A stretch of 64,000 nt of DNA from Escherichia coli (lineage in GTDB: Bacteria; Pseudomonadota; Gammaproteobacteria; Enterobacterales; Enterobacteriaceae), in NCBI RefSeq assembly GCF_013122565.1, contig NZ_CP053258.1; one strand, 5' to 3'. The notes under the pieces were generated by a model, which had not been told where the DNA came from, made no database searches, and saw only the letters and a program-made list of their open reading frames with translations. Below, piece after piece: positions 25,486-42,829 of this stretch (positions within the stretch are counted from its first letter, which is position 1; the number at the start of each line of letters is the position of its first letter). The position numbers and the translations under genes were made by a program.

Positions 25486-27765
25486 ATGGATGACCAGTTA
25501 AAACAAAGTGCACTTGATTTCCATGAATTTCCAGTTCCAGGGAAAATCCAGGTTTCTCCAACCAAGCCTCTGGCAACGCAGCGCGATCTGGCGCTGGCCT
25601 ACTCACCAGGCGTTGCCGCACCTTGTCTTGAAATCGAAAAAGACCCGTTAAAAGCCTACAAATATACCGCGCGCGGTAACCTGGTGGCGGTGATCTCTAA
25701 CGGTACGGCGGTGCTGGGGTTAGGCAACATTGGCGCGCTGGCAGGCAAACCGGTGATGGAAGGCAAGGGCGTTCTGTTTAAGAAATTCGCCGGGATTGAT
25801 GTATTTGACATTGAAGTCGATGAACTCGACCCGGACAAATTTATTGAAGTCGTCGCTGCGCTCGAACCGACCTTCGGCGGAATCAACCTCGAAGACATTA
25901 AAGCGCCAGAATGTTTCTATATTGAACAGAAACTGCGCGAGCGGATGAATATTCCGGTATTCCACGACGATCAGCACGGCACGGCAATCATCAGCACTGC
26001 CGCCATCCTCAACGGCTTGCGCGTGGTGGAGAAAAACATCTCCGACGTGCGGATGGTGGTTTCCGGCGCGGGTGCCGCAGCAATCGCCTGTATGAACCTG
26101 CTGGTCGCGCTGGGGCTGCAAAAACATAACATCGTGGTTTGCGATTCAAAAGGCGTTATCTATCAGGGCCGTGAGCCAAACATGGCGGAAACCAAAGCCG
26201 CATATGCGGTGGTGGATGACGGTAAACGTACCCTCGATGATGTAATTGAAGGTGCGGATATTTTCCTCGGCTGTTCCGGCCCGAAAGTGCTGACCCAGGA
26301 AATGGTGAAGAAAATGGCTCGGGCACCAATGATCCTGGCGCTGGCGAATCCGGAACCGGAAATTCTGCCGCCGCTGGCGAAAGAAGTGCGTCCGGATGCC
26401 ATCATTTGCACCGGTCGTTCTGACTATCCAAACCAGGTCAACAACGTCCTTTGCTTCCCGTTTATCTTCCGTGGCGCGCTGGACGTTGGCGCAACGGCTA
26501 TCAATGAAGAGATGAAACTGGCGGCAGTACGCGCGATTGCGGAACTGGCCCACGCCGAACAGAGCGAAGTGGTGGCTTCTGCGTATGGCGATCAGGATCT
26601 TAGCTTTGGCCCTGAATACATCATTCCAAAACCGTTCGATCCGCGCTTGATCGTTAAGATCGCTCCTGCGGTCGCGAAAGCGGCGATGGAGTCGGGCGTG
26701 GCGACGCGTCCGATTGCTGATTTCGACGTCTACATCGACAAGCTGACTGAGTTCGTTTACAAAACCAACCTGTTTATGAAGCCGATTTTCTCCCAGGCTC
26801 GCAAAGCGCCGAAGCGCGTAGTTCTGCCGGAAGGGGAAGAGGCGCGCGTTCTGCATGCCACTCAGGAACTGGTAACGCTGGGACTGGCGAAACCGATCCT
26901 TATCGGTCGTCCGAACGTGATCGAAATGCGCATTCAGAAACTGGGCTTGCAGATCAAAGCGGGCGTTGATTTTGAGATCGTCAATAACGAATCCGATCCG
27001 CGCTTTAAAGAGTACTGGACCGAATACTTCCAGATCATGAAGCGTCGCGGCGTCACTCAGGAACAGGCGCAGCGGGCGCTGATCAGTAACCCGACAGTGA
27101 TCGGCGCGATCATGGTTCAGCGTGGCGAAGCCGATGCAATGATTTGCGGTACGGTGGGTGATTATCATGAACATTTTAGCGTGGTGAAAAATGTCTTTGG
27201 TTATCGCGATGGCGTTCACACCGCAGGTGCCATGAACGCGCTGCTGCTGCCGAGTGGTAACACCTTTATTGCCGATACATATGTTAATGATGAACCGGAT
27301 GCAGAAGAGCTGGCGGAGATCACCTTGATGGCGGCAGAAACTGTCCGTCGTTTTGGTATTGAGCCGCGTGTTGCTCTGTTGTCGCACTCCAACTTTGGTT
27401 CTTCTGACTGCCCGTCGTCGAGCAAAATGCGTCAGGCGCTGGAACTGGTCAGGGATAGTGCGCCAGATCTGATGATTGATGGTGAAATGCACGGCGATGC
27501 AGCGCTGGTGGAAGCGATTCGCAATGACCGTATGCCGGACAGCCCTTTGAAAGGTTCCGCCAATATTCTGGTAATGCCAAACATGGAAGCTGCCCGCATT
27601 AGTTACAACTTACTGCGCGTTTCCAGCTCGGAAGGTGTGACTGTCGGTCCGGTGCTGATGGGCGTGGCGAAACCGGTTCACGTGTTAACGCCGATCGCAT
27701 CGGTACGTCGTATCGTCAACATGGTGGCGCTGGCCGTGGTTGAAGCGCAAACCCAACCGCTGTAA
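25486..27765 (+). CDS. maeB: NADP-dependent malic enzyme (malic enzyme plus phosphotransacetylase-like domain)
   Basis: 759 aa, [27 protein letters not shown]. Confidence 0.96.
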
Positions 27766-27784
27766 TTCTTTTTTAACTCTCACG

Positions 27785-27815
27785 CTTACCCTGAATATTC
27801 AGGGTAAGCGGTTTA
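27785..27815 (+). terminator. hairpin terminator candidate after maeB
   Basis: GCTTACCCTG-AATATT-CAGGGTAAGC perfect 10-bp stem followed by GGTTT. Confidence 0.5.
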
Positions 27816-28055
27816 GCTGCAATATATTAGTAAAGCTTATTACTGAGTTTACGAATAATAAAAAAAGCAATATAAAATATCTCGATATTATTTTATTTAT
27901 ATTCATGCGTCGCATATGAAAGTTTATTCATAACAGTAAATATCTCTCCATTCTTAGTGATCTACCTCACCTTTTAAACGTGCTTGCCGAATTTTGTTAT
28001 TTACTCTGACGAAAAATTGTCACGATACACGAAAGTTTTTCACAGGCGGCGACTC

Positions 28056-28391
28056 ATGGATAAAGAACGCATCATTCAGGAATTTGTGCCCGGCAAACAG
28101 GTCACACTGGCGCATCTCATCGCGCATCCCGGCGAGGAACTGGCGAAGAAAATCGGCGTTCCGGATGCTGGCGCAATCGGCATTATGACGTTAACTCCTG
28201 GCGAAACGGCGATGATCGCCGGTGATTTAGCACTGAAAGCCGCCGATGTGCATATCGGTTTTCTCGACCGTTTTAGCGGCGCGCTGGTGATTTATGGCTC
28301 GGTGGGTGCAGTAGAAGAAGCGTTATCACAAACCGTCAGTGGTTTAGGTCGCTTATTAAATTATACGCTTTGTGAAATGACCAAAAGTTAA
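28056..28391 (+). CDS. eutS: ethanolamine-utilisation microcompartment shell protein EutS (permuted BMC domain)
   Basis: 111 aa from [26 protein letters not shown]. Confidence 0.9.
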
Positions 28392-28403
28392 TACGAGGCA
28401 TTC

Positions 28404-28883
28404 ATGAAACGAATTGCGTTTGTGGGTACCGTCGGGGCAGGGAAAACAACGTTATTTAATGCGTTGCAGGGGAATTATACCCTCGCCAGAAAAACACAGG
28501 CCGTGGAATTTAATGATAAGGGCGATATTGATACGCCGGGTGAATATTTTAGCCATCCCCGCTGGTATCACGCCTTAATTACCACGCTACAGGATGTGGA
28601 CATGCTGATCTATGTCCACGGCGCGAATGACCCGGAAAGTCGGTTGCCTGCCGGGTTGCTGGATATTGGCGTCAGCAAACGGCAAATCGCCGTCATCAGT
28701 AAAACGGACATGCCAGATGCTGACGTCGCCGCAACGCGAAAGTTATTGCTTGAGACGGGCTTCGAAGAGCCGATTTTCGAGCTAAACAGCCACGACCCGC
28801 AAAGCGTGCAGCAACTGGTGGATTATCTGGCATCTCTCACCAAACAGGAGGAAGCAGGTGAAAAAACTCATCACAGCGAATGA
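28404..28883 (+). CDS. eutP: ethanolamine-utilisation protein EutP (P-loop GTPase-like acetate kinase)
   Basis: 159 aa, MKRIAFVGTVGAGKTTLFNAL Walker A. Confidence 0.92.
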   Translation: MKRIAFVGTVGAGKTTLFNALQGNYTLARKTQAVEFNDKGDIDTPGEYFSHPRWYHALITTLQDVDMLIYVHGANDPESRLPAGLLDIGVSKRQIAVISKTDMPDADVAATRKLLLETGFEEPIFELNSHDPQSVQQLVDYLASLTKQEEAGEKTHHSE

Positions 28884-29547
28884 TATTCGTGAAGCACACG
28901 CGCGTGGCGAACAGGCAATGTCCGTGGTTCTGCGCGCCAGCATTATTACCCCGGAAGCCCGTGAAGTGGCGGACCTGCTGGGTTTTACCATCACTGAATG
29001 CGAGGAATCGACACCAGCAACGGTATCTGTGCCCGTAGAGAAAACCGAAAGCCAGCGCATCCGCGAAACCATCATTGCCCAGCTGCCGGAAGGCCAGTTT
29101 ACCGAAAGCCTGGTCGCGCAGTTGATGGAAAAAGTGATGAAGGAAAAACAGTCGCTGGAGCAGGGTGCAATGCAGCCGAGCTTTAAATCGGTGACCGGCA
29201 AAGGCGGCATCAAAGTTATTGATGGTAGCAGCGTCAAGTTTGGTCGCTTTGATGGCGCACAACCGCATTGCGTGGGCTTGACTGATCTTGTGACCGGAGA
29301 CGACGGCAGCAGCATGGCCGCCGGTTTTATGCAGTGGGACAACGCCTTCTTCCCGTGGACCCTGAACTACGACGAAATCGACATGGTGCTGGAAGGGGAG
29401 CTGCATGTTCGCCACGAAGGCGAAACCATGATCGCCAAAGCAGGCGACGTGATGTTTATCCCGAAAGGCTCCAGCATCGAATTTGGTACGACATCCAGCG
29501 TGAAATTCCTGTATGTCGCCTGGCCGGCTAACTGGCAATCCCTATGA
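28858..29547 (+). CDS. eutQ: ethanolamine-utilisation protein EutQ (cupin-type acetate kinase)
   Basis: 229 aa, MKKLITANDIREAHARGEQAMSVVL; overlaps eutP by 26 nt. Confidence 0.9.
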   Translation: MKKLITANDIREAHARGEQAMSVVLRASIITPEAREVADLLGFTITECEESTPATVSVPVEKTESQRIRETIIAQLPEGQFTESLVAQLMEKVMKEKQSLEQGAMQPSFKSVTGKGGIKVIDGSSVKFGRFDGAQPHCVGLTDLVTGDDGSSMAAGFMQWDNAFFPWTLNYDEIDMVLEGELHVRHEGETMIAKAGDVMFIPKGSSIEFGTTSSVKFLYVAWPANWQSL

Positions 29548-30347
29548 AAGATTTCATCACCGAAGCATGGCTAAGAGCGAACCATACGCTCAGCGAAGGC
29601 GCAGAGATCCATCTCCCTGCGGACAGTCGCCTGACGCCCTCTGCCCGGGAGTTGCTGGAAAGCCGCCATCTGCGCATCAAGTTTATTGACGAGCAGGGCC
29701 GCCTGTTTGTTGACGATGAACAGCAGCAGCCGCAGCCCGTTCATGGGCTGACCAGTAGCGATGAACATCCGCAGGCGTGCTGCGAACTGTGCCGCCAGCC
29801 GGTGGCAAAAAAGCCGGATACGCTGACTCACCTGTCGGCGGAAAAAATGGTCGCCAAAAGCGATCCGCGCCTGGGTTTTCGCGCGGTTCTCGACAGCACC
29901 ATTGCGCTGGCAGTGTGGCTGCAAATTGAACTGGCAGAACCGTGGCAGCCATGGCTGGCGGACATCCGCTCGCGTCTTGGCAACATTATGCGTGCCGATG
30001 CGCTGGGGGAACCGTTGGGCTGCCAGGCGATTGTCGGGCTTTCTGACGAAGATCTGCATCGGCTTTCTCACCAGCCGCTGCGCTATCTCGACCACGATCA
30101 TCTGGTGCCGGAAGCCAGCCACGGGCGCGATGCTGCGTTGCTGAATCTGCTACGCACCAAAGTGCGGGAAACCGAAACCGTAGCGGCGCAGGTGTTTATC
30201 ACCCGCAGCTTTGAAGTATTACGCCCGGACATCTTGCAGGCGCTGAACCGCCTTTCGAGCACGGTCTACGTGATGATGATCCTGAGCGTAACGAAGCAGC
30301 CGCTAACGGTGAAGCAGATCCAACAACGACTGGGGGAAACGCAATGA
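29544..30347 (+). CDS. eutT: ethanolamine-utilisation cobalamin adenosyltransferase EutT
   Basis: 267 aa, [32 protein letters not shown]; ATGA overlap with eutQ. Confidence 0.92.
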
Positions 30348-31360
30348 TTATTGAACGTTGTCGTGAACTGGCGTTGCGAGCGCCCGCCAGAGTGGTTTTT
30401 CCGGATGCGTTAGATCAACGTGTGCTGAAAGCTGCGCAATATTTACATCAACAAGGTCTGGCAACGCCCATTCTGGTCGCTAATCCGTTTGAACTTCGTC
30501 AGTTTGCGCTCAGTCATGGCGTAGCGATGGACGGGCTACAGGTGATTGATCCGCATGGCAACCTCGCAATGCGGGAAGAATTTGCTCATCGCTGGCTGGC
30601 CCGCGCGGGCGAAAAAACGCCGCCGGATGCGCTGGAAAAACTTACCGATCCGCTGATGTTCGCCGCCGCAATGGTCAGCGCCGGTAAAGCGGATGTCTGT
30701 ATCGCGGGCAATCTCTCTTCCACGGCGAATGTGCTGCGTGCCGGATTACGCATTATTGGCTTGCAGCCAGGCTGTAAAACGCTCTCATCCATTTTCCTGA
30801 TGCTGCCACAGTACAGCGGTCCGGCGTTGGGTTTTGCCGATTGCAGCGTGGTGCCACAGCCGACGGCGGCACAACTGGCGGATATCGCGCTTGCCAGCGC
30901 CGAAACCTGGCAGGCCATCACCGGAGAAGAACCGCGCGTGGCGATGCTGTCGTTTTCCAGCAATGGTAGCGCCCGTCACCCCTGCGTTGCCAACGTCCAG
31001 CAGGCGACAGAAATCGTCCGTGAGCGCGCACCAAAGCTGGTTGTCGATGGCGAGTTGCAGTTTGACGCCGCCTTCGTGCCGGAAGTGGCGGCGCAAAAAG
31101 CGCCTGCCAGCCCGCTACAAGGCAAAGCCAATGTGATGGTTTTTCCGTCGCTGGAGGCAGGAAATATTGGCTACAAAATCGCACAACGACTCGGCGGATA
31201 TCGTGCCGTCGGGCCATTGATACAAGGGCTTGCCGCGCCGATGCACGATCTCTCTCGTGGTTGTAGCGTGCAGGAAATTATCGAGCTGGCGCTGGTGGCA
31301 GCTGTGCCGCGTCAGACAGAAGTGAACCGCGAAAGCAGTTTACAAACACTGGTTGAATGA
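30344..31360 (+). CDS. eutD: phosphotransacetylase EutD (EutI)
   Basis: 338 aa, [34 protein letters not shown]. Confidence 0.93.
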
Positions 31361-31398
31361 ACGGTCCCGTTCTGGACCCTGATAAAGAGGAAAGCACA

Positions 31399-31692
31399 AT
31401 GGAAGCATTAGGAATGATCGAAACCCGGGGCCTGGTTGCACTGATTGAGGCTTCTGACGCGATGGTGAAAGCTGCGCGCGTCAAGCTGGTTGGTGTTAAG
31501 CAGATTGGCGGCGGCCTGTGTACTGCCATGGTTCGTGGTGATGTTGCAGCCTGTAAAGCAGCGACCGATGCCGGTGCCGCAGCGGCACAGCGTATCGGCG
31601 AGCTGGTATCTGTACACGTTATCCCGCGTCCGCACGGCGACCTGGAAGAAGTGTTCCCGATCGGCCTGAAAGGCGATAGCAGCAACCTGTAA
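31399..31692 (+). CDS. eutM: microcompartment major shell protein EutM (BMC-H)
   Basis: 97 aa from [28 protein letters not shown]. Confidence 0.93.
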
Positions 31693-31798
31693 TCACCCTG
31701 TGTGACGTCGATTCGGGCGTCACGCTCTCTCATTTTTCATTTTACCTTCCGCGGAGGGTAGGGGGAGCTTTTACCTGAAATACGCCACGGAGGCGGGT

Positions 31799-32086
31799 AT
31801 GAAACTGGCAGTCGTCACTGGACAAATTGTTTGTACCGTACGCCATCACGGACTGGCGCATGACAAATTGCTGATGGTGGAAATGATTGATCCACAAGGT
31901 AATCCTGACGGGCAATGCGCCGTCGCCATCGACAATATTGGCGCGGGAACCGGGGAGTGGGTGTTGCTGGTGAGTGGCAGTTCTGCCCGCCAGGCGCATA
32001 AAAGCGAAACGTCACCGGTCGATCTGTGCGTGATTGGCATCGTCGATGAGGTGGTGTCTGGCGGTCAGGTAATTTTCCACAAATAA
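31799..32086 (+). CDS. eutN: microcompartment vertex protein EutN (BMC-P)
   Basis: 95 aa, MKLAVVTGQIVCTVRHHGL. Confidence 0.92.
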   Translation: MKLAVVTGQIVCTVRHHGLAHDKLLMVEMIDPQGNPDGQCAVAIDNIGAGTGEWVLLVSGSSARQAHKSETSPVDLCVIGIVDEVVSGGQVIFHK

Positions 32087-32097
32087 GGCAGAACATC

Positions 32098-33501
32098 ATG
32101 AATCAACAGGATATTGAACAGGTGGTGAAAGCGGTACTGCTGAAAATGCAAAGCAGTGACACGCCGCCCGCCGCCGTTCATGAGATGGGCGTTTTCGCGT
32201 CCCTGGATGACGCCGTTGCGGCAGCCAAAATTGCCCAGCAAGGGTTAAAGAGCGTGGCAATGCGCCAGTTAGCCATTGCTGCCATTCGTGAAGCAGGCGA
32301 AAAACACGCCAGAGATTTAGCGGAACTTGCCGTCAGTGAAACCGGTATGGGCCGCGTTGAAGATAAATTTGCCAAAAACGTCGCTCAGGCGCGCGGCACG
32401 CCAGGCGTTGAGTGCCTCTCTCCGCAGGTGCTGACCGGTGACAACGGCCTGACTTTAATTGAAAACGCGCCCTGGGGCGTGGTGGCTTCGGTAACGCCGT
32501 CCACAAACCCGGCGGCAACCGTAATTAACAACGCCATCAGCCTGATTGCCGCGGGCAACAGCGTCATTTTTGCCCCGCATCCGGCGGCGAAAAAAGTCTC
32601 CCAGCGGGCGATCACGCTGCTCAACCAGGCGATTGTTGTCGCAGGCGGGCCGGAAAACTTACTGGTTACTGTGGCAAATCCGGATATCGAAACCGCGCAA
32701 CGTTTGTTCAAGTTTCCGGGCATCGGCCTTCTGGTGGTGACCGGCGGCGAAGCGGTAGTCGAAGCGGCGCGTAAACACACCAATAAACGTCTGATTGCCG
32801 CAGGCGCTGGCAACCCGCCGGTAGTGGTGGATGAAACCGCTGACCTCGCCCGTGCTGCTCAGTCCATCGTCAAAGGCGCGTCTTTCGATAACAACATCAT
32901 TTGTGCCGACGAAAAGGTACTGATTGTTGTTGATAGCGTAGCCGATGAACTGATGCGTCTGATGGAAGGCCAGCACGCGGTGAAACTGACCGCCGAGCAG
33001 GCGCAGCAGCTGCAACCGGTGTTGCTGAAAAATATCGACGAGCGCGGAAAAGGTACCGTCAGCCGTGACTGGGTTGGTCGCGATGCGGCGAAAATCGCGG
33101 CGGCAATCGGCCTGAACGTGCCGCAAGAAACGCGTTTGCTGTTTGTGGAAACCACCGCAGAACATCCGTTTGCTGTGACTGAACTGATGATGCCGGTGCT
33201 GCCCGTCGTGCGCGTCGCCAACGTGGCGGATGCCATTGCGCTGGCGGTGAAACTGGAGGGCGGTTGCCACCACACGGCGGCAATGCACTCGCGCAACATC
33301 GAAAACATGAACCAGATGGCGAACGCCATTGATACCAGCATTTTCGTTAAGAACGGACCGTGCATTGCCGGGCTGGGGCTGGGCGGGGAAGGCTGGACCA
33401 CCATGACCATCACCACGCCAACCGGTGAAGGGGTAACCAGCGCGCGGACGTTTGTCCGTCTGCGTCGCTGTGTATTAGTCGATGCGTTTCGCATTGTTTA
33501 A
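32098..33501 (+). CDS. eutE: CoA-acylating acetaldehyde dehydrogenase EutE
   Basis: 467 aa, MNQQDIEQVVKAVLLKMQSSDTPPAAVHEMGVF. Confidence 0.95.
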   Translation: MNQQDIEQVVKAVLLKMQSSDTPPAAVHEMGVFASLDDAVAAAKIAQQGLKSVAMRQLAIAAIREAGEKHARDLAELAVSETGMGRVEDKFAKNVAQARGTPGVECLSPQVLTGDNGLTLIENAPWGVVASVTPSTNPAATVINNAISLIAAGNSVIFAPHPAAKKVSQRAITLLNQAIVVAGGPENLLVTVANPDIETAQRLFKFPGIGLLVVTGGEAVVEAARKHTNKRLIAAGAGNPPVVVDETADLARAAQSIVKGASFDNNIICADEKVLIVVDSVADELMRLMEGQHAVKLTAEQAQQLQPVLLKNIDERGKGTVSRDWVGRDAAKIAAAIGLNVPQETRLLFVETTAEHPFAVTELMMPVLPVVRVANVADAIALAVKLEGGCHHTAAMHSRNIENMNQMANAIDTSIFVKNGPCIAGLGLGGEGWTTMTITTPTGEGVTSARTFVRLRRCVLVDAFRIV

Positions 33502-33511
33502 GGAGTAACCG

Positions 33512-34348
33512 ATGGCGCATGACGAACAATGGCTCACCCCACGTCTGCACATAGCGGCAACGCTGTGTAACCAGACGCCCGCCGCGACGGAATCCCCGCT
33601 GTGGCTGGGGGTGGATCTGGGCACCTGCGATGTGGTGTCGATGGTTGTCGACCACGACGGTCAGCCGGTGGCGGTATGCCTCGACTGGGCCGATGTGGTC
33701 CGCGACGGCATCGTCTGGGATTTCTTCGGTGCGGTCACCATTGTTCGTCGCCATCTCGACACCCTTGAGCAGCAATTCGGTCGCCGTTTTAGCCATGCGG
33801 CGACTTCATTTCCTCCGGGTACGGACCCGCGTATTTCCATCAACGTGCTGGAATCAGCCGGACTGGAAGTGAGCCATGTGCTGGATGAGCCAACCGCAGT
33901 CGCGGATCTGCTGCAACTGGATAACGCCGGTGTAGTGGATATCGGCGGCGGCACCACCGGCATTGCCATCGTGAAAAAGGGCAAGGTGACGTACTCGGCG
34001 GATGAAGCCACTGGCGGACATCACATCTCTCTGACTCTCGCCGGAAATCGTCGTATTTCGCTGGAAGAGGCGGAGCAGTACAAGCGCGGTCATGGTGAAG
34101 AGATTTGGCCCGCGGTGAAACCGGTGTACGAAAAAATGGCGGACATTGTCGCCCGGCATATTGAAGGGCAGGGCATTACTGATTTATGGCTGGCGGGCGG
34201 CTCCTGTATGCAACCGGGCGTGGCGGAACTGTTTAGCAAACAATTCCCGGCATTACAGGTGCATTTACCGCAGCACAGTTTGTTTATGACCCCGCTGGCG
34301 ATCGCCAGTAGTGGGCGAGAGAAAGCGGAGGGGATCTATGCAAAATGA
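33512..34348 (+). CDS. eutJ: ethanolamine-utilisation chaperone-like protein EutJ (actin/Hsp70 fold)
   Basis: 278 aa, MAHDEQWLTPRLHIAATLCNQ. Confidence 0.93.
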   Translation: MAHDEQWLTPRLHIAATLCNQTPAATESPLWLGVDLGTCDVVSMVVDHDGQPVAVCLDWADVVRDGIVWDFFGAVTIVRRHLDTLEQQFGRRFSHAATSFPPGTDPRISINVLESAGLEVSHVLDEPTAVADLLQLDNAGVVDIGGGTTGIAIVKKGKVTYSADEATGGHHISLTLAGNRRISLEEAEQYKRGHGEEIWPAVKPVYEKMADIVARHIEGQGITDLWLAGGSCMQPGVAELFSKQFPALQVHLPQHSLFMTPLAIASSGREKAEGIYAK

Positions 34349-35525
34349 ATTGCAGACCGCGCTCTTTCAGGCGTTCGATACCCTGAATCTGCAACGGGTA
34401 AAAACATTTAGCGTTCCACCGATGACGCTTTGCGGTCCGGGCGCGGTGAGCAGTTGTGGGCAGCAAGCGCAAACGCGTGGGCTGAAACATCTGTTCGTGA
34501 TGGCAGACAGCTTTTTGCATCAGGCGGGGATGACCGCCGGGCTGACGCGCAGCCTGGCCGTTAAAGGTATCGCCATGACGCTCTGGCCATGTCCGGTGGG
34601 CGAACCATGCATCACCGACGTATGTGCAGCCGTGGCGCAGCTGCGTGAATCAGGCTGTGACGGGGTGATCGCGTTTGGCGGCGGCTCGGTGCTGGATGCG
34701 GCGAAAGCCGTGGCGTTGCTGGTGACGAACCCCGATAGCACGCTGGCGGAAATGTCAGAAACCAGCGTTCTGCAACCGCGCCTGCCGTTGATTGCCATTC
34801 CAACGACCGCCGGAACCGGCTCTGAAACCACCAACGTAACGGTGATTATCGACGCGGTGAGCGAGCGCAAGCAGGTGTTAGCCCATGCCTCGCTGATGCC
34901 GGATGTGGCGATCCTCGACGCCGCATTGACCGAAGGTGTGCCGTCGCATGTCACGGCGATGACCGGTATCGACGCGTTAACTCATGCCATTGAAGCGTAC
35001 AGCGCGCTGAACGCCACACCGTTTACCGACAGTCTGGCGATTGGCGCTATTGCGATGATTGGCAAATCGCTGCCGAAAGCGGTGGGCTACGGTCACGACC
35101 TTGCCGCGCGCGAGAGCATGTTGCTGGCTTCATGTATGGCGGGAATGGCGTTTTCCAGTGCGGGGCTTGGGGTATGCCACGCGATGGCGCATCAGCCGGG
35201 GGCGGCGCTGCATATTCCGCACGGTCTGGCGAACGCCATGCTACTGCCAACGGTGATGGAGTTTAACCGGATGGTCTGTCGCGAACGCTTTAGTCAGATT
35301 GGTCGGGCACTGCGAACTAAAAAATCCGACGATCGTGACGCTATTAACGCGGTAAGTGAGTTGATTGCGGAGGTCGGGATCAACAAGCGGCTGGCAGACG
35401 TGGGCGCAACCACCGGACATTACGGCGCATGGGCGCAGGCCGCGCTGGAAGATATTTGTCTGCGCAGCAACCCGCGTACCGCCAGCCTGGAACAGATTGT
35501 CGGCCTGTACGCAGCGGCGCAATAA
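34338..35525 (+). CDS. eutG: iron-containing alcohol dehydrogenase EutG
   Basis: 395 aa from MQNELQTALFQAFDTLNLQRVKTF; overlaps eutJ 3' end. Confidence 0.9.
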   Translation: MQNELQTALFQAFDTLNLQRVKTFSVPPMTLCGPGAVSSCGQQAQTRGLKHLFVMADSFLHQAGMTAGLTRSLAVKGIAMTLWPCPVGEPCITDVCAAVAQLRESGCDGVIAFGGGSVLDAAKAVALLVTNPDSTLAEMSETSVLQPRLPLIAIPTTAGTGSETTNVTVIIDAVSERKQVLAHASLMPDVAILDAALTEGVPSHVTAMTGIDALTHAIEAYSALNATPFTDSLAIGAIAMIGKSLPKAVGYGHDLAARESMLLASCMAGMAFSSAGLGVCHAMAHQPGAALHIPHGLANAMLLPTVMEFNRMVCRERFSQIGRALRTKKSDDRDAINAVSELIAEVGINKRLADVGATTGHYGAWAQAALEDICLRSNPRTASLEQIVGLYAAAQ

Positions 35526-35526
35526 A

Positions 35527-35611
<85 letters not shown>

Positions 35612-35641
35612 ATAAATAACAACTAACAGGGAGTAAAGGCG

Positions 35642-36868
35642 ATGGGAATTAACGAAATCATCATGTACATCATGATGTTCTTTATGCTGATAGCTGCCGT
35701 AGACAGGATCCTGTCGCAGTTCGGCGGTTCTGCTCGTTTCCTCGGTAAGTTCGGTAAAAGTATCGAAGGATCAGGCGGTCAGTTCGAAGAAGGCTTTATG
35801 GCAATGGGCGCTCTGGGTCTGGCGATGGTCGGTATGACCGCGCTGGCACCGGTACTGGCTCACGTACTCGGGCCGGTAATTATCCCGGTTTACGAAATGC
35901 TCGGCGCAAACCCGTCAATGTTCGCCGGAACGCTGCTGGCGTGCGATATGGGCGGCTTCTTCCTCGCCAAAGAGCTGGCGGGCGGCGACGTAGCAGCGTG
36001 GCTATACTCTGGGTTAATTCTCGGGTCGATGATGGGGCCAACGATTGTGTTTTCCATTCCGGTGGCGCTCGGCATTATCGAACCTTCTGACCGTCGTTAT
36101 CTGGCGCTCGGCGTGCTGGCGGGCATTGTGACCATTCCGATTGGTTGTATCGCTGGTGGTCTGGTAGCTATGTACTCCGGTGTTCAGATCAACGGCCAGC
36201 CGGTGGAATTCACTTTCGCCCTGATCCTGATGAACATGATCCCGGTGATCATTGTTGCGATTCTGGTGGCGCTGGGGCTGAAATTCATCCCGGAAAAAAT
36301 GATCAACGGCTTCCAGATCTTCGCCAAATTCCTCGTTGCATTGATCACCCTCGGTCTTGCCGCTGCGGTAGTGAAATTCCTGCTTGGCTGGGAACTGATC
36401 CCCGGTCTGGATCCTATCTTTATGGCCCCTGGCGATAAACCCGGTGAGGTGATGCGCGCCATTGAAGTTATCGGTTCTATCTCCTGCGTGCTGTTAGGGG
36501 CGTATCCGATGGTGCTGCTGCTGACCCGTTGGTTTGAAAAACCGCTGATGAGCGTCGGTAAAGTGCTGAATATGAACAACATCGCGGCAGCCGGCATGGT
36601 GGCAACGCTTGCCAACAACATCCCGATGTTCGGCATGATGAAGCAGATGGATACCCGCGGCAAAGTCATCAACTGCGCCTTCGCCGTTTCCGCTGCTTTC
36701 GCCCTGGGCGACCACTTAGGCTTCGCCGCTGCCAACATGAACGCCATGATTTTCCCGATGATTGTCGGCAAGTTGATCGGCGGCGTAACGGCGATTGGCG
36801 TGGCGATGATGCTGGTGCCAAAAGAAGACGCGACCGCGGCTAAAACCGAAGCGGAGGCACAATCGTGA
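35642..36868 (+). CDS. eutH: ethanolamine permease EutH
   Basis: 408 aa, MGINEIIMYIMMFFMLIAAVDRIL, polytopic membrane protein. Confidence 0.95.
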   Translation: MGINEIIMYIMMFFMLIAAVDRILSQFGGSARFLGKFGKSIEGSGGQFEEGFMAMGALGLAMVGMTALAPVLAHVLGPVIIPVYEMLGANPSMFAGTLLACDMGGFFLAKELAGGDVAAWLYSGLILGSMMGPTIVFSIPVALGIIEPSDRRYLALGVLAGIVTIPIGCIAGGLVAMYSGVQINGQPVEFTFALILMNMIPVIIVAILVALGLKFIPEKMINGFQIFAKFLVALITLGLAAAVVKFLLGWELIPGLDPIFMAPGDKPGEVMRAIEVIGSISCVLLGAYPMVLLLTRWFEKPLMSVGKVLNMNNIAAAGMVATLANNIPMFGMMKQMDTRGKVINCAFAVSAAFALGDHLGFAAANMNAMIFPMIVGKLIGGVTAIGVAMMLVPKEDATAAKTEAEAQS

Positions 36869-38268
36869 ACACTCGCCAGCTACTGAGCGTCGGTATCGAT
36901 ATCGGCACTACCACCACCCAGGTGATCTTCTCCCACCTGGAGCTGGTTAACCGTGCGGCGGTGTCGCAGGTGCCGCGCTACGAATTCATCAAACGCGAAA
37001 TTAGCTGGCAAAGCCCGGTGTTCTTTACCCCTGTCGATAAACAGGGTGGTTTAAAAGAAGCGGAACTGAAAACCTTAATCCTCGAGCAATATCAGGCTGC
37101 GGGCATTGCGCCGGAAAGCGTTGATTCTGGTGCCATCATCATCACCGGTGAAAGCGCGAAAACCCGCAATGCTCGCCCGGCGGTGATGGCGCTCTCCCGG
37201 TCGCTGGGCGATTTTGTCGTCGCCAGCGCCGGGCCGCATCTCGAATCCGTGATCGCCGGTCACGGTGCCGGGGCGCAAACCCTTTCTGAACAACGGCTGT
37301 GTCGGGTCCTGAATATCGATATCGGCGGTGGCACCGCGAACTACGCCCTGTTCGATGCCGGAAAAATCAGCGGTACTGCCTGCCTCAACGTCGGCGGTCG
37401 CCTGCTGGAAACCGACAGCCAGGGGCGCGTGGTTTACGCTCATAAACCGGGGCAGATGATTGTGGATGAGTGCTTCGGCGCAGGCACCGACGCCCGTTCG
37501 CTGACCGGCGCGCAGCTGGTGCAGGTTACCCGGCGGATGGCAGAGCTGATTGTCGAAGTGATTGACGGAACGCTTTCGCCGCTCGCGCAGGCATTAATGC
37601 AAACCGGTTTGCTGCCCGCAGGTGTTACGCCCGAAATCATTACGCTTTCTGGCGGCGTGGGCGAATGTTATCGCCACCAGCCCGCCGACCCGTTCTGTTT
37701 TGCCGATATTGGCCCGCTGCTGGCAACGGCGCTGCATGACCATCCGCGCCTGCGTGAGATGAACGTGCAGTTTCCGGCGCAAACCGTGCGTGCCACGGTG
37801 ATTGGCGCGGGGGCACATACCCTTTCGCTCTCTGGCAGCACAATCTGGCTTGAGGGCGTACAACTGCCGCTGCGCAATTTGCCGGTGGCGATCCCGATTG
37901 ATGAAACGGATCTGGTGGGTGCCTGGCAACAGGCGCTGATTCAGCTGGATCTTGATCCCAAAACTGACGCGTACGTGCTGGCGCTTCCCGCCTCGCTGCC
38001 TGTGCGTTACGCCGCGGTACTGACGGTCATCAACGCGTTGGTCGATTTCGTCGCGCGTTTTCCGAATCCGCATCCCCTGCTGGTGGTGGCCGGGCAGGAC
38101 TTTGGTAAAGCTCTGGGCATGTTGTTGCGCCCACAGCTACAACAACTCCCGTTGGCAGTCATTGACGAAGTGATTGTCCGCGCGGGGGACTATATCGACA
38201 TTGGTACGCCTCTTTTTGGCGGATCGGTTGTGCCGGTGACGGTGAAATCACTCGCATTTCCTTCCTGA
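36865..38268 (+). CDS. eutA: ethanolamine ammonia-lyase reactivating factor EutA
   Basis: 467 aa, MNTRQLLSVGIDIGTTTTQVIFSHLEL. Confidence 0.95.
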   Translation: MNTRQLLSVGIDIGTTTTQVIFSHLELVNRAAVSQVPRYEFIKREISWQSPVFFTPVDKQGGLKEAELKTLILEQYQAAGIAPESVDSGAIIITGESAKTRNARPAVMALSRSLGDFVVASAGPHLESVIAGHGAGAQTLSEQRLCRVLNIDIGGGTANYALFDAGKISGTACLNVGGRLLETDSQGRVVYAHKPGQMIVDECFGAGTDARSLTGAQLVQVTRRMAELIVEVIDGTLSPLAQALMQTGLLPAGVTPEIITLSGGVGECYRHQPADPFCFADIGPLLATALHDHPRLREMNVQFPAQTVRATVIGAGAHTLSLSGSTIWLEGVQLPLRNLPVAIPIDETDLVGAWQQALIQLDLDPKTDAYVLALPASLPVRYAAVLTVINALVDFVARFPNPHPLLVVAGQDFGKALGMLLRPQLQQLPLAVIDEVIVRAGDYIDIGTPLFGGSVVPVTVKSLAFPS

Positions 38269-38279
38269 GGGAACGACTT

Positions 38280-39641
38280 ATGAAACTAAAGACCACATTG
38301 TTCGGCAATGTATATCAGTTTAAGGATGTAAAAGAGGTGCTGGCTAAAGCCAACGAACTGCGTTCGGGGGATGTGCTGGCGGGCGTCGCAGCGGCAAGCT
38401 CACAGGAGCGCGTGGCGGCAAAGCAGGTGTTGTCGGAAATGACCGTAGCGGACATCCGCAATAATCCGGTGATTGCCTATGAAGATGACTGCGTGACGCG
38501 GCTGATTCAGGACGATGTTAACGAAACGGCCTACAACCAGATTAAAAACTGGAGCATCAGCGAACTGCGTGAGTATGTGCTGAGCGATGAAACCAGCGTG
38601 GACGACATTGCCTTTACCCGCAAAGGGCTGACCTCGGAAGTGGTCGCGGCGGTAGCGAAGATTTGCTCCAACGCGGACCTGATTTACGGCGCGAAGAAAA
38701 TGCCGGTAATCAAAAAGGCCAATACCACCATCGGTATTCCGGGCACCTTCAGCGCCCGTTTGCAGCCAAATGACACCCGTGACGACGTGCAAAGTATCGC
38801 CGCGCAAATCTACGAAGGGCTTTCCTTCGGGGTGGGCGATGCGGTGATCGGCGTTAACCCGGTGACTGACGACGTGGAAAACTTAAGCCGCGTGCTGGAC
38901 ACCATCTATGGCGTGATCGACAAATTCAACATCCCAACTCAGGGCTGCGTACTGGCGCACGTCACCACCCAGATCGAAGCGATTCGTCGCGGCGCGCCTG
39001 GCGGACTGATTTTCCAGAGTATCTGTGGCAGCGAAAAAGGGCTGAAAGAGTTTGGCGTGGAACTGGCGATGCTCGACGAAGCGCGCGCAGTGGGTGCAGA
39101 GTTCAACCGTATCGCCGGGGAAAACTGCCTCTACTTCGAAACCGGACAAGGTTCAGCGCTATCCGCTGGCGCTAACTTCGGCGCAGACCAGGTGACGATG
39201 GAAGCACGTAACTATGGGCTGGCGCGTCATTACGATCCGTTTATCGTCAACACCGTGGTCGGCTTTATTGGGCCGGAGTATCTCTACAACGACCGCCAGA
39301 TTATCCGTGCGGGCTTAGAAGATCACTTTATGGGCAAGCTGAGCGGCATCTCTATGGGCTGTGACTGCTGTTACACCAACCACGCTGACGCTGACCAGAA
39401 CCTCAACGAAAACCTGATGATCCTGCTCGCCACCGCAGGCTGCAACTACATCATGGGGATGCCGCTGGGTGATGACATCATGCTCAACTACCAGACCACC
39501 GCATTCCACGATACCGCCACTGTGCGTCAGTTACTCAACCTGCGCCCGTCACCGGAGTTTGAACGCTGGCTGGAAAGCATGGGCATTATGGCAAACGGTC
39601 GCCTGACCAAACGGGCGGGCGATCCGTCACTGTTCTTCTGA
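38280..39641 (+). CDS. eutB: ethanolamine ammonia-lyase large subunit EutB
   Basis: 453 aa, MKLKTTLFGNVYQFKDVKEVLAKANELRSGD; directly follows eutA. Confidence 0.96.
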   Translation: MKLKTTLFGNVYQFKDVKEVLAKANELRSGDVLAGVAAASSQERVAAKQVLSEMTVADIRNNPVIAYEDDCVTRLIQDDVNETAYNQIKNWSISELREYVLSDETSVDDIAFTRKGLTSEVVAAVAKICSNADLIYGAKKMPVIKKANTTIGIPGTFSARLQPNDTRDDVQSIAAQIYEGLSFGVGDAVIGVNPVTDDVENLSRVLDTIYGVIDKFNIPTQGCVLAHVTTQIEAIRRGAPGGLIFQSICGSEKGLKEFGVELAMLDEARAVGAEFNRIAGENCLYFETGQGSALSAGANFGADQVTMEARNYGLARHYDPFIVNTVVGFIGPEYLYNDRQIIRAGLEDHFMGKLSGISMGCDCCYTNHADADQNLNENLMILLATAGCNYIMGMPLGDDIMLNYQTTAFHDTATVRQLLNLRPSPEFERWLESMGIMANGRLTKRAGDPSLFF

Positions 39642-39661
39642 TGACGCGGAGATAACACATC

Positions 39662-40549
39662 ATGGATCAAAAACAGATTGAAGAAATTGTACGCAGCGTG
39701 ATGGCGTCAATGGGACAAGCGGCCCCCGCGCCGTCAGAAGCAAAGTGCGCCACTACCACCTGTGCGGCACCGGTGACCTCGGAAAGCTGCGCGCTGGATT
39801 TAGGTTCTGCGGAAGCAAAAGCGTGGATTGGTGTTGAAAACCCGCATCGCGCAGACGTATTAACAGAACTGCGCCGCAGCACCGTGGCCCGCGTTTGTAC
39901 CGGTCGTGCCGGTCCGCGTCCGCGTACCCAGGCGTTGCTGCGTTTCCTGGCCGATCACTCTCGTTCGAAAGATACCGTACTTAAAGAAGTGCCGGAAGAG
40001 TGGGTGAAAGCGCAGGGCTTGCTGGAAGTCCGCTCCGAAATTAGCGACAAAAATCTCTACCTGACTCGCCCGGATATGGGCCGCCGCCTGTGTGCAGAAG
40101 CTGTTGAAGCGCTGAAAGCACAGTGTGTTGCTAATCCGGACGTACAGGTCGTTATTTCTGATGGCCTGTCAACTGATGCCATCACCGTGAACTACGAAGA
40201 GATCCTGCCGCCGCTGATGGCGGGCCTGAAACAGGCCGGGCTGAAAGTCGGTACACCATTCTTTGTTCGTTATGGTCGCGTGAAGATTGAAGATCAGATC
40301 GGTGAGATCCTCGGCGCGAAAGTAGTGATCCTGCTGGTGGGCGAACGTCCGGGGTTGGGTCAGTCAGAAAGCCTCTCCTGCTACGCCGTTTACTCGCCGC
40401 GTATGGCGACCACCGTTGAGGCCGATCGCACCTGTATCTCTAACATTCACCAGGGCGGCACGCCGCCGGTTGAAGCCGCAGCCGTCATTGTGGATTTGGC
40501 GAAACGTATGCTGGAGCAGAAAGCATCCGGCATCAACATGACCCGATAA
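39662..40549 (+). CDS. eutC: ethanolamine ammonia-lyase small subunit EutC
   Basis: 295 aa, [24 protein letters not shown]. Confidence 0.95.
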
Positions 40550-40558
40550 GGAGGCATC

Positions 40559-41218
40559 ATGCCAGCTTTAGATTTGATTCGACCGTCTGTCACCGCTATG
40601 CGGGTGATTGCCTCCGTTAACGCCGATTTTGCGCGTGAACTGAAATTGCCGCCGCATATTCGTAGCCTCGGTCTGATTTCTGCTGATTCCGATGACGTCA
40701 CCTACATTGCCGCTGATGAAGCGACCAAGCAGGCGATGGTGGAAGTGGTGTATGGCCGCTCGCTGTATGCGGGCGCTGCACACGGCCCGTCACCGACTGC
40801 CGGTGAAGTGCTGATTATGCTTGGTGGGCCAAACCCGGCGGAAGTGCGTGCAGGTCTGGATGCGATGGTTGCGCATATTGAAAATGGCGCTGCTTTCCAG
40901 TGGGCTAATGATGCGCAAGATACGGCATTCCTGGCACATGTGGTTTCGCGTACCGGTTCTTATCTTTCATCAACCGCCGGGATCACGCTTGGCGATCCGA
41001 TGGCGTATCTGGTGGCACCGCCGCTGGAAGCGACCTACGGCATTGATGCAGCGTTGAAATCTGCCGACGTACAGCTGGTGACCTATGTCCCGCCACCGTC
41101 TGAAACTAACTACTCGGCAGCATTTTTAACCGGTAGCCAGGCAGCGTGTAAAGCGGCCTGTAACGCCTTTACCGATGCAGTGCTGGAAATCGCGCGTAAT
41201 CCAATCCAGCGTGCGTAA
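40559..41218 (+). CDS. eutL: microcompartment shell protein EutL (tandem BMC domain, trimer)
   Basis: 219 aa, [31 protein letters not shown]. Confidence 0.95.
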
Positions 41219-41230
41219 TGGAGGTTGCCG

Positions 41231-41731
41231 ATGATCAATGCACTGGGATTGCTGGAAGTGGACGGCATGGTCGCTGCGATAGATGCAGCGGATGCCATGC
41301 TCAAAGCAGCTAACGTTCGTCTGCTCAGTCACGAAGTGCTTGACCCTGGTCGCTTAACGCTGGTGGTGGAAGGCGATCTGGCGGCGTGTCGTGCTGCGCT
41401 GGACGCAGGTTGTGCTGCCGCGATGCGTACCGGGCGTGTCATCAGCCGCAAGGAGATCGGTCGGCCAGACGATGACACCCAGTGGCTGGTTACTGGCTTT
41501 AACCGCCAGCCGAAGCAACCCGTAAAGGAACCCGACGCGCCAGTTATCGTCGCGGAATCTGCTGACGAGTTGTTGGCGCTGTTAACATCAGTACGTCAGG
41601 GAATGACGGCAGGAGAAGTGGCTGCCCACTTTGGCTGGCCGCTGGAAAAAGCCAGAAATGCGCTCGAACAGCTCTTTTCTGCAGGGACGTTACGTAAACG
41701 CAGTAGTCGTTATCGTCTCAAGCCCCATTAA
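41231..41731 (+). CDS. eutK: microcompartment shell protein EutK (BMC domain plus C-terminal nucleic-acid-binding-like domain)
   Basis: 166 aa from MINALGLLEVDGMVAAIDAADAMLKAANV. Confidence 0.9.
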   Translation: MINALGLLEVDGMVAAIDAADAMLKAANVRLLSHEVLDPGRLTLVVEGDLAACRAALDAGCAAAMRTGRVISRKEIGRPDDDTQWLVTGFNRQPKQPVKEPDAPVIVAESADELLALLTSVRQGMTAGEVAAHFGWPLEKARNALEQLFSAGTLRKRSSRYRLKPH

Positions 41732-41776
41732 CCTGTCGGAGGTGCCGGGTGTCCTACAACACCCGGCATTAACATC

Positions 41777-42829
41777 ATGAAAAAGACCCGTACAGCCAAT
41801 TTGCACCATCTTTATCATGAACCCTTACCCGAAAACCTGAAGCTCACGCCGAAGGTCGAAGTGGATAATGTTCATCAACGACAGACAACGGATGTCTATG
41901 AACATGCTTTAACGATTACCGCCTGGCAGCAGATTTACGATCAGCTGCATCCGGGCAAGTTTCATGGTGAATTTACGGAAATTCTACTCGATGATATTCA
42001 GGTTTTTCGTGAATACACCGGTCTGGCGCTGCGTCAGTCGTGCCTGGTCTGGCCGAACTCGTTCTGGTTTGGCATTCCGGCGACGCGCGGTGAGCAGGGA
42101 TTTATCGGTTCGCAATGTCTGGGAAGCGCAGAAATAGCGACGCGCCCCGGTGGCACTGAGTTTGAATTAAGTACGCCGGACGATTACACGATCCTGGGCG
42201 TAGTGCTTTCTGAAGATGTCATCACCCGTCAGGCTAACTTTTTGCATAATCCGGATCGGGTATTACATATGCTGCGTAGCCAGTCGGCGCTGGAAGTGAA
42301 AGAGCAGCATAAAGCCGCGCTGTGGGGCTTTGTCCAACAGGCGCTGGCGACGTTTTGCGAGAACCCGGAAAATCTCCATCAGCCTGCAGTGCGAAAAGTG
42401 CTGGGGGATAATTTGCTCATGGCGATGGGGGCGATGCTGGAAGAAGCGCAACCAATGGTGACGGCGGAAAGCATCAGTCATCAGAGTTACCGTAGATTAC
42501 TTTCCCGCGCCCGTGAATATGTGCTGGAAAACATGTCCGAACCGGTGACGGTGCTGGATTTGTGTAATCAACTGCATGTCAGCCGCCGCACGCTACAAAA
42601 CGCGTTTCACGCTATTTTAGGCATTGGCCCGAACGCGTGGCTGAAACGCATTCGCCTGAACGCCGTACGCCGCGAACTGATAAGCCCGTGGTCGCAAAGC
42701 ACAACGGTAAAAGACGCCGCCATGCAGTGGGGATTCTGGCATCTGGGGCAATTTGCCACGGATTACCAGCAGCTGTTTTCCGAGAAGCCGTCGTTGACGT
42801 TGCATCAGCGGATGCGGGAATGGGGGTGA
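41777..42829 (+). CDS. eutR: AraC-family transcriptional activator of the eut operon EutR
   Basis: 350 aa, [26 protein letters not shown]; C-terminal AraC HTH. Confidence 0.93.

Follow-up and report, generated by a model that had tools for sequence, protein, structure and literature searches.

We analyzed a 64,000-nucleotide (nt) stretch of Escherichia coli DNA (contig NZ_CP053258.1 of assembly GCF_013122565.1; "the window" below is this whole stretch), which carries an intact eut operon, eutSPQTDMNEJGHABCLKR, on the + strand at 27984-42829. Our subject is the 106-nt untranslated spacer between the shell genes eutM and eutN (31693-31798, + strand). This spacer forms a sense-strand RNA structure, is conserved, and bears the mark of selection. 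We give a probability of roughly 45% to the reading that it is a cis-acting element of the eut mRNA that acts as a decay barrier, and possibly as a leaky terminator, at the boundary of the eutS-eutM segment and that uncouples translation of eutN from that of eutM. What we infer from these observations is the barrier activity and the influence it has on the eutM:eutN ratio; this influence would probably be modest.

The eutM coding sequence (31399-31692, +; 97 amino acids [aa], the major hexameric shell protein) ends with a TAA stop at 31690-31692, and eutN (31799-32086, +; 95 aa, the pentameric vertex protein) begins with an ATG at 31799. Both genes follow from the open reading frame (ORF) list and RefSeq, which for eutM include the translation and an identical annotated protein. 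The original prediction, made from the letters of the window alone, had placed a 106-nt gap at 31693-31798, and this was exact. It had also set eutM-eutN apart from the other eut junctions; most of these do overlap or leave only 9 to 20 nt, but eutG-eutH is longer (116 nt), and eutK-eutR (45 nt) and eutD-eutM (38 nt) are also spaced. In RefSeq, K-12-like and O157:H7 genomes have this gap at the same length of 106 nt, and nothing is annotated inside it. Against O157:H7 genomes, the 691-bp eutM-eutN stretch is 99.6% identical and the spacer alone is 100% identical. Among 5,426 complete E. coli genomes, 5,407 contain the spacer, at one place per genome (median, 1) and nearly always at ≥95% identity. 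An Rfam cmscan of 31000-32500 on both strands returned zero matches up to an E value of 10, and a literature search found nothing on the eutM-eutN spacer.

On the + strand the whole spacer folds at −41.4 kcal/mol (z = −2.75 versus dinucleotide shuffles), a stable and strand-specific fold, since the − strand (−29.3 kcal/mol, z = −1.13) does no better than chance. Hairpin 1 (31700-31725, +) begins 8 nt past the eutM stop and has a 10-bp stem, 31700-31709 paired with 31716-31725, around a 6-nt loop, GAUUCG (31710-31715). Six of its 10 pairs are G-C, as in the G+C-rich stem-loop of an intrinsic terminator. Its energy is −16.2 kcal/mol (z = −4.4), which none of 200 shuffles equaled, and in a sliding 30-nt scan of the eut operon, it ranks 6th among 14,817 windows. 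Four of the eight most stable 30-nt hairpins of the 14.8-kb operon sit in its three long gaps. The GTGACG...CGTCAC hairpin named in the original prediction is the core of this stem (31702-31707 paired with 31718-31723).

Hairpin 2 (31724-31768, +; −17.9 kcal/mol, z = −3.3, 0 of 200 shuffles) is composite. Its outer stem pairs a 5′ arm, GCUCUCUC (31724-31731, +), with a 3′ arm, GGGGGAGC (31761-31768, +), a Shine-Dalgarno-like purine run that is held in the duplex. An asymmetric U-rich internal loop, AUUUUUCAUUU (31732-31742, +), is unpaired in both the minimum free energy and the consensus structures, and an O157 versus K-12 difference (A/C at 31732) falls in it. The inner stem-loop, UACCUUC-CGCG-GAGGGUA (31743-31760, +), has 7 bp plus a tetraloop, folds at −7.8 kcal/mol alone, and contains the second near-palindrome of the original prediction, CCTTCCGCGGAGGG (31745-31758), so that both proposed hairpins are real. 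The U-rich stretch said to follow the first hairpin is also present, as a pyrimidine/U-rich run at 31726-31742, but its beginning is the 5′ arm of hairpin 2, whose outer stem had been missed. Farther downstream, a conserved single-stranded linker, UUUUACCUGAAAUACGCCAC (31769-31788, +), leads to the eutN Shine-Dalgarno sequence, GGAGG (31789-31793, +), which lies partly inside a small hairpin, GCC-ACGGA-GGC (31783-31795).

The spacer holds an internal repeat: TTTTACCT followed by CGGAGG occurs at 31740-31758 and again at 31769-31793. The first copy is the inner part of hairpin 2, and the second is the true eutN leader with its ribosome-binding site, so hairpin 2 may have arisen by duplication of the region where ribosomes bind for eutN.

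For comparison across species, we took one genome per species with EutN, which gave 48 loci, and tested the structure on a MAFFT alignment of the 22 distinct spacers of the E. coli type (below, native type), from 5 genera. Standard pairs fill 91.6% of the sequence-by-pair cells, versus 45 to 58% when the 3′ partners are slid by 1 to 3 columns. Ten pairs have changed on both sides, a count reached by 2 of 500 shuffles, and the covariation score was reached by none of the 500; RNAalifold independently predicts the same helices. Compensatory changes lie in both stems of hairpin 2, at 3 of the 8 outer pairs and 4 of the 7 inner pairs (e.g., ACCUUC/GAGGGU, GUUCUC/GAGAGC, and GCCCUC/GAGGGC). Three U-G pairs are conserved, two of them in the hairpin 2 outer stem; on the opposite strand these would be C-A mismatches, and thus the structure belongs to the eut mRNA. 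The helix around the eutN Shine-Dalgarno sequence is paired in 98.5% of cases, with one-sided changes only.

Hairpin 1 behaves differently over the same distance. Twelve of its stem bases, GUGACG/CGUCAC, are invariant across the 22 sequences, from Escherichia to Buttiauxella; 7 of 9 pairs show no variation, pair 7 is U-G, C-G, or U-A, and the loop ranges from 5 to ∼21 nt between genera. The linker segment UA-CUGAA (31772-31779) is likewise invariant in all native-type gaps and absent from the other type of gap described below, whereas CGGAGG at the eutN ribosome-binding site is invariant in both.

When E. coli is compared with Citrobacter, the four-fold synonymous sites in eutM, eutN, and eutE are only 53 to 55% identical, compared with 73 to 74% for the spacer and 75 to 89% for the part from hairpin 2 to the Shine-Dalgarno sequence. 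Against Escherichia whittamii, the corresponding values are 81% for synonymous sites and 98% for the spacer, and the few changes that separate Escherichia alleles are confined to loops or make a G-run shorter. Because its identity exceeds that of four-fold synonymous sites, the spacer is, judged from these alignments, under purifying selection.

All 40 Enterobacteriaceae loci that have both genes contain an eutM-eutN gap of 52 to 144 nt; in Pseudomonas and Rhodocyclaceae, the gap is 131 to 211 nt. Spacers with both native hairpins occur in Escherichia, the Citrobacter freundii group, a second Citrobacter group, Klebsiella spallanzanii, Buttiauxella, and Entomohabitans, and Yokenella retains hairpin 1 only, with a compensatory AUGACG/CGUCAU change. 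A covariance model of the native module scores 105 bits in the window and 45 to 112 bits in the other genera, at this junction only; it has no second copy in the 64-kb window. In Salmonella, the other Klebsiella species, Citrobacter koseri, C. amalonaticus, C. sedlakii, Pseudocitrobacter, and Pluralibacter, repetitive extragenic palindromic (REP) elements replace the native module at the same junction. One to three REP elements, variable in number and orientation, were found with a mismatch-tolerant regular expression in 14 of the 15 nonnative enterobacterial spacers. None of these 15 keeps the native module, and the covariance model has no match in the REP-type loci. Conversely, the same kind of search for the REP consensus, GCC(G/T)GATG...CTTATC(C/A)GGCCTAC, gave no hit in the window gap or in any native-type gap tested. 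Related operons thus keep hairpins at this junction, either as the native module or as REP elements, and no sampled lineage lacks the gap or has an unstructured one.

Several observations accompany this distribution. Within the Escherichia-Citrobacter-Klebsiella-Salmonella group, the EutM C terminus tracks the spacer type: native-type proteins end in ...GDSSNL or GDSNDM, and most REP-type proteins end two codons earlier, in ...KGDSNI; REP insertion may have remodeled the end of the eutM gene. Buttiauxella and Yokenella, which are of the native type, have different EutM endings of their own. K. spallanzanii differs from its relatives in having an Escherichia-type EutM end and spacer, a hint of horizontal transfer. 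The Salmonella spacer (loci L028 and L036) consists of 111 to 112 nt of REP sequence. In Salmonella enterica serovar Typhi CT18 and Ty2, the eutM stop has been lost and the spacer is in frame, so that eutM, spacer, and eutN are annotated as a single 690-bp ORF (PMC3548604). Three very short contigs, L020 (446 bp), L034 (466 bp), and L045 (269 bp), are labeled Gemelliphila, Prolixibacteraceae, and Caballeronia and encode EutN that is 87 to 100% identical to the enterobacterial protein; these contigs are most likely contaminants.

A drop in RNA at this junction is seen in a single published data set. In E. coli LF82 in minimal medium (uninduced) and with bile salts (induced), reads per kilobase per million (RPKM) were 13 and 83 for eutT, 108 and 357 for eutD, 55 and 177 for eutM, 5 and 62 for eutN, 14 and 149 for eutE, 13 and 147 for eutJ, 35 and 168 for eutG, and 106 and 514 for eutH (PMC6379400). 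The step down from eutM to eutN is thus 11-fold uninduced and 2.9-fold induced, but that from eutM to eutE is only 3.9-fold and 1.2-fold. Other LF82 abundance steps coincide with the other structured gaps, from eutG to eutH and from eutK to eutR. With stable structure, covariation, selection, and the LF82 step, the spacer has the features expected of a protective 3′ structure, i.e., a conserved stem-loop at the boundary between a more abundant and a less abundant RNA segment.

We picture the decay barrier as follows. Two adjacent stable stem-loops, hairpin 1 and composite hairpin 2, would form 8 nt beyond the stop codon as soon as RNA polymerase has cleared eutM. If an endonuclease then cuts the single-stranded linker downstream, these stem-loops would halt 3′-to-5′ exonucleases, and they might also cause a low level of termination. 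RNAs ending just past eutM would then outlast or outnumber the eutN-eutE-eutJ-eutG segment. The 106 structured, untranslated bases would at the same time prevent ribosomes that finish eutM from continuing into eutN, which would therefore depend on its own, partly hairpin-enclosed ribosome-binding site. The presence of REP elements, classic 3′ decay barriers as in malE-malF (PMC5927463), at the orthologous site in other genera makes the barrier reading more plausible.

The LF82 profile has other features. RNA rises 3-fold from eutG to eutH and 3- to 4-fold from eutK to eutR, and it rises 8-fold (uninduced) or 4-fold (induced) from eutT to eutD although these genes overlap (29544-31360). An internal promoter behind the high eutD and eutM RNA was rejected, as there is no promoter-like match in 27700-30400. 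The eutD-eutM segment could be a stabilized one with the eutM-eutN spacer as its 3′ boundary.

Several points weigh against the barrier reading. Induced eutE RNA (149) nearly equals that of eutM (177), and only the short eutN gene is low (62). EutE, EutB, EutC, and EutL are abundant proteins; in E. coli K-12, relative intensity-based absolute quantification (iBAQ) values are 96 for EutM, 1 for EutN, 27 for EutE, 10 for EutD, 37 for EutB, and 39 for EutL (PMC11334477). Any attenuation must therefore be weak, and the spacer is no strong stop. REP elements settle in any available intergenic gap, so that their presence at this site may be opportunistic, and a purely structural role leaves the invariant stem sequence of hairpin 1 unexplained. 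In the pdu operon, no structured gap exists at the pduA/pduB, pduJ/pduK, or pduM/pduN-like junctions. Hairpin 1 is followed by a poor U-tract that belongs to hairpin 2, and neither the C. freundii group nor any REP-type gap shows the terminator-like pattern. No sense-strand 3′ end at the spacer appears in the K-12 Term-seq tables, which come from cultures in which eut was not induced; in the supplementary tables of PMC5927463, the eut genes are absent.

The original prediction, that the gap could be a partial terminator or an RNA processing or stability element that sets shell stoichiometry, is partly borne out by this evidence. The hairpin and U-rich stretch make a poor intrinsic terminator: the tail of hairpin 1, UCUCUCAUUU, passes only a lax terminator scan (5 T's in 8, offset 2), pairs in hairpin 2, and is not part of a conserved pattern, and hairpin 2 is trailed by only UUUUA. 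At best, the spacer is a leaky terminator in some lineages. The idea that the gap sets shell stoichiometry gains from the excess of eutM over eutN RNA in LF82 but loses from the recovery of eutE, the abundance of the downstream proteins, and the gapless pdu operon. An RNA-level effect of 1.2- to 3-fold (at most ∼10-fold) cannot alone set a ∼100:1 EutM:EutN ratio; given this and the abundant downstream proteins, most of that ratio must come from translation. In enterohemorrhagic E. coli (EHEC), the log2 fold changes upon induction are practically equal for eutM and eutN (4.37 versus 4.30 and 4.64 versus 4.47), and thus nothing suggests condition-specific control at the gap.

An alternative that we regard as unlikely is that the spacer is purely a translational insulator or controller of eutN initiation and leaves RNA levels unaffected. 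The hairpins would then only block scanning and reinitiation and would sequester both the GGAGGG and GGGGGAG runs and the true ribosome-binding site, keeping EutN low and independent. Both decoy Shine-Dalgarno-like runs are indeed base paired in hairpin 2, the sequence around the ribosome-binding site, CGGAGGCGGGU-AUG, is conserved across native and REP-type gaps alike, and the site sits in a small hairpin in each, the well-paired GCC-ACGGA-GGC in native spacers and ACCC-ACGGAGGC-GGGU in REP-type ones. The eutN initiation region is predicted to be poorly accessible by the standard of this operon (0.37 versus 0.63 for eutM), and the recovery of EutE just downstream of the scarce EutN points to gene-specific translation. 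However, the accessibility difference is small and does not match protein levels (eutL, at 0.39, yields a protein level of 39), and a conserved, strong GGAGG at ideal spacing is odd for a poorly translated gene. Insulation alone also leaves unexplained the LF82 RNA step and why hairpin 1, which is distant from the ribosome-binding site, is the most conserved part, and pduN is low without any gap. That same conservation of hairpin 1 suggests that a trans-acting factor recognizes its sequence, be it an RNase, an RNA-binding regulator like CsrA with the two CGGAGG motifs, or a Eut protein, giving regulated control of the shell genes; we think this improbable. Its 12 GUGACG/CGUCAC bases are invariant though synonymous sites are near saturation and hairpin 2 changes freely over the same distance, the UA-CUGAA linker is invariant without a structural explanation, and a GGA lies in the ACGGA loop of the hairpin around the Shine-Dalgarno sequence, an arrangement that we take to resemble a CsrA site. 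Yet no factor is known, Yokenella has changed the stem in a compensatory way, Salmonella, Klebsiella, and others dispense with the motif and use REP elements, and the equal induction in EHEC speaks against condition-specific control. An extended version, in which structured spacers at eutM-eutN, eutG-eutH, and eutK-eutR divide the eut mRNA into four expression modules and the eutM-eutN stem and UA-CUGAA linker bind a factor (an RNase, a global RNA-binding protein, or a Eut protein like EutK with its orphan nucleic acid-binding domain) that feeds back the status of shell assembly, appears very unlikely to us.

The opposite view, that the spacer is a functionless evolutionary seam with hairpins arisen by chance or hitchhiking and a landing pad for REP elements elsewhere, is to our minds about as doubtful as a trans-acting factor. 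It would account for the opportunistic REP elements with their changing number and orientation, for the variable gap length, for the absence of an equivalent in the pdu operon, and for the weak whole-gap z-scores (−0.6 to −1.7) in several Citrobacter. It fits poorly with a gap clearly above synonymous-site conservation, with compensatory changes that maintain both hairpin 2 stems, with a native module that persists across genera whose synonymous sites are nearly saturated, and with the presence of a structured gap in every sampled lineage. Last, an antisense RNA could start in the gap, carry hairpin 1 in reverse complement at its 5′ end, and extend into eutM from the 3′ side. Term-seq gives a weak 3′ end antisense to this gene, at MG1655 position 2572217(+), which corresponds by sequence to ∼31622 on the − strand (Adams et al. 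2021, PMC7815308), and there is a good −10 hexamer, TAAAAT, at 31744-31739 (−). The read support is low (946 versus 23,000 to 105,000 for neighboring entries), no −35 element or promoter-like match was found, the −10 hexamer is not conserved outside Escherichia, the − strand fold is unremarkable and turns U-G pairs into C-A mismatches, and the antisense ORF at 31733-31278 (151 aa) loses its ATG in K-12 and Citrobacter and is spurious; we consider such a transcript highly improbable.

A number of narrower candidates were rejected or found no support. The only small ORF in the gap is a 19-codon GTG frame without a Shine-Dalgarno sequence; indels between species have lengths not divisible by three, and no in-frame start lies upstream of the invariant UGA at 31776-31778. 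Long-range pairing of GUGACG with the CGTCAC of eutN codons 5 to 7 fails in that REP-type loci conserve this hexamer equally well and Buttiauxella has lost it but retains hairpin 1. A pseudoknot between UUUCA in the internal loop and UGAAA in the linker is 95% paired but shows only wobble-preserving transitions and has no Buttiauxella equivalent, and a helix between CACCC at the 5′ end of the gap and GGGU before the ATG is only 67% paired. A boxA/Nus factor site has a single-stranded GCUCUUUAACAA-like consensus; the E. coli sequence, CGCUCUCUCA, matches only its first 5 or 6 bases, and the tract pairs in hairpin 2 with covariation. A good boxA, CUCUUUAAC, occurs only in Buttiauxella sp. B2; Buttiauxella noackiae has UUCUUUAAC. 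The ANTAR (EutV-type) dual-hairpin targets of Firmicute eut loci have hexaloops with A at position 1 and G at position 4 and overlap a terminator. Here the hairpin 1 loop is GAUUCG and elsewhere 5 to ∼21 nt of unrelated sequence, and hairpin 2 has a tetraloop. Sites for CRP and NarL were rejected by eye against consensus sequences. Liang, Rudd, and Deutscher reportedly found in 2015 that translation of the upstream gene is lowered when a REP-type hairpin begins no more than 15 nt from the stop codon; across lineages, the first hairpin or REP element starts 6 to ∼34 nt past the eutM stop, and a stop-proximal effect was rejected as a shared property.

The two other long structured spacers are of different kinds. 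The eutG-eutH spacer (35526-35641) contains two inverted REP elements, TGCCGGATGCGACGCATGTCGCGTCTTATCCGGCCTAC and its partner GGCGGATAAGGCGTTCACGCCGCATCCGCC, which form a bacterial interspersed mosaic element (BIME), and it folds at −45 kcal/mol (z = −3.7). The eutK-eutR spacer (41732-41776) contains a hairpin at ∼41742-41769, GUGCCGGGUGUCCUACAACACCCGGCAU, just upstream of the eutR start; at −20.7 kcal/mol, it is the most stable local 30-nt hairpin of the entire eut operon. At the eutA-eutB junction (38268-38280), the genes are 11 nt apart, and the operon is therefore intact here; in K-12 MG1655, the CPZ-55 prophage is inserted at this junction.

The spacer is a selected RNA element exactly between the genes of the most abundant and the least abundant Eut shell proteins. 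How ∼100 hexamer subunits per pentamer subunit are obtained from one transcript is a question relevant to the engineering of synthetic compartments. If the spacer tunes the survival of eutM mRNA or insulates eutN, eutM-eutN constructs with and without it should give different shell compositions, and the native module and REP elements at the same position amount to a natural experiment on whether any stable hairpin suffices. The expected effect is modest and the mechanism well known, so that the value lies mainly in annotation and in a design rule.

Among known systems, we compared the spacer with REP/BIME elements, with protective 3′ structures, with intraoperon attenuators, and with a second microcompartment operon. 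Like REP/BIME elements, it places imperfect palindromes in a transcribed intergenic region, and eutG-eutH of the same operon holds two inverted REPs. Unlike them, it lacks similarity to the REP consensus, with no GCCGGATG...CTTATCCGG core, and is eut specific and present once per genome, compared with hundreds of REP copies; being single copy in E. coli, with no other covariance model match and no REP consensus, it was rejected as a member of that repeat family. The pdu operon resembles eut in encoding a major bacterial microcompartment hexamer and a low-abundance EutN/CcmL-type pentamer in one long operon. In contrast to eut, pduA/pduB and pduJ/pduK of E. coli NT1N34 (L051) overlap by 4 nt, and the pduN-like gene for an EutN-family pentamer lies 3 nt after pduM, with no structured spacer. 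We therefore rejected a generalization to other microcompartment operons; with a similar hexamer/pentamer imbalance in pdu, a structured spacer is no general requirement for shell stoichiometry.

Leaky attenuators within operons include the rplL-rpoB intergenic attenuator and hairpins after major pilin genes such as papA, the papBA case being summarized in PMC5927463. There, as in eut, a gene for a major structural subunit is followed by a long structured spacer and then by genes needed in lower amounts; unlike there, where termination or processing is documented, the eut U-tract is weak and not conserved, and the downstream genes are well expressed. The spacer also resembles the malE-malF REP and the protective 3′ structures of Dar and Sorek (2018; PMC5927463), in which stable hairpins stand directly downstream of a more highly expressed upstream gene. 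As in those cases, the eut hairpins are conserved between enterobacteria and RNA abundance drops across them in LF82, and Salmonella, Klebsiella, and C. koseri hold actual REP elements at the orthologous position. Most of the structures described by Dar and Sorek lie within the downstream coding sequence, whereas the eut structure occupies a dedicated spacer. The eutM-eutN spacer is thus most likely an unannotated element of an already known within-operon type rather than a new principle.

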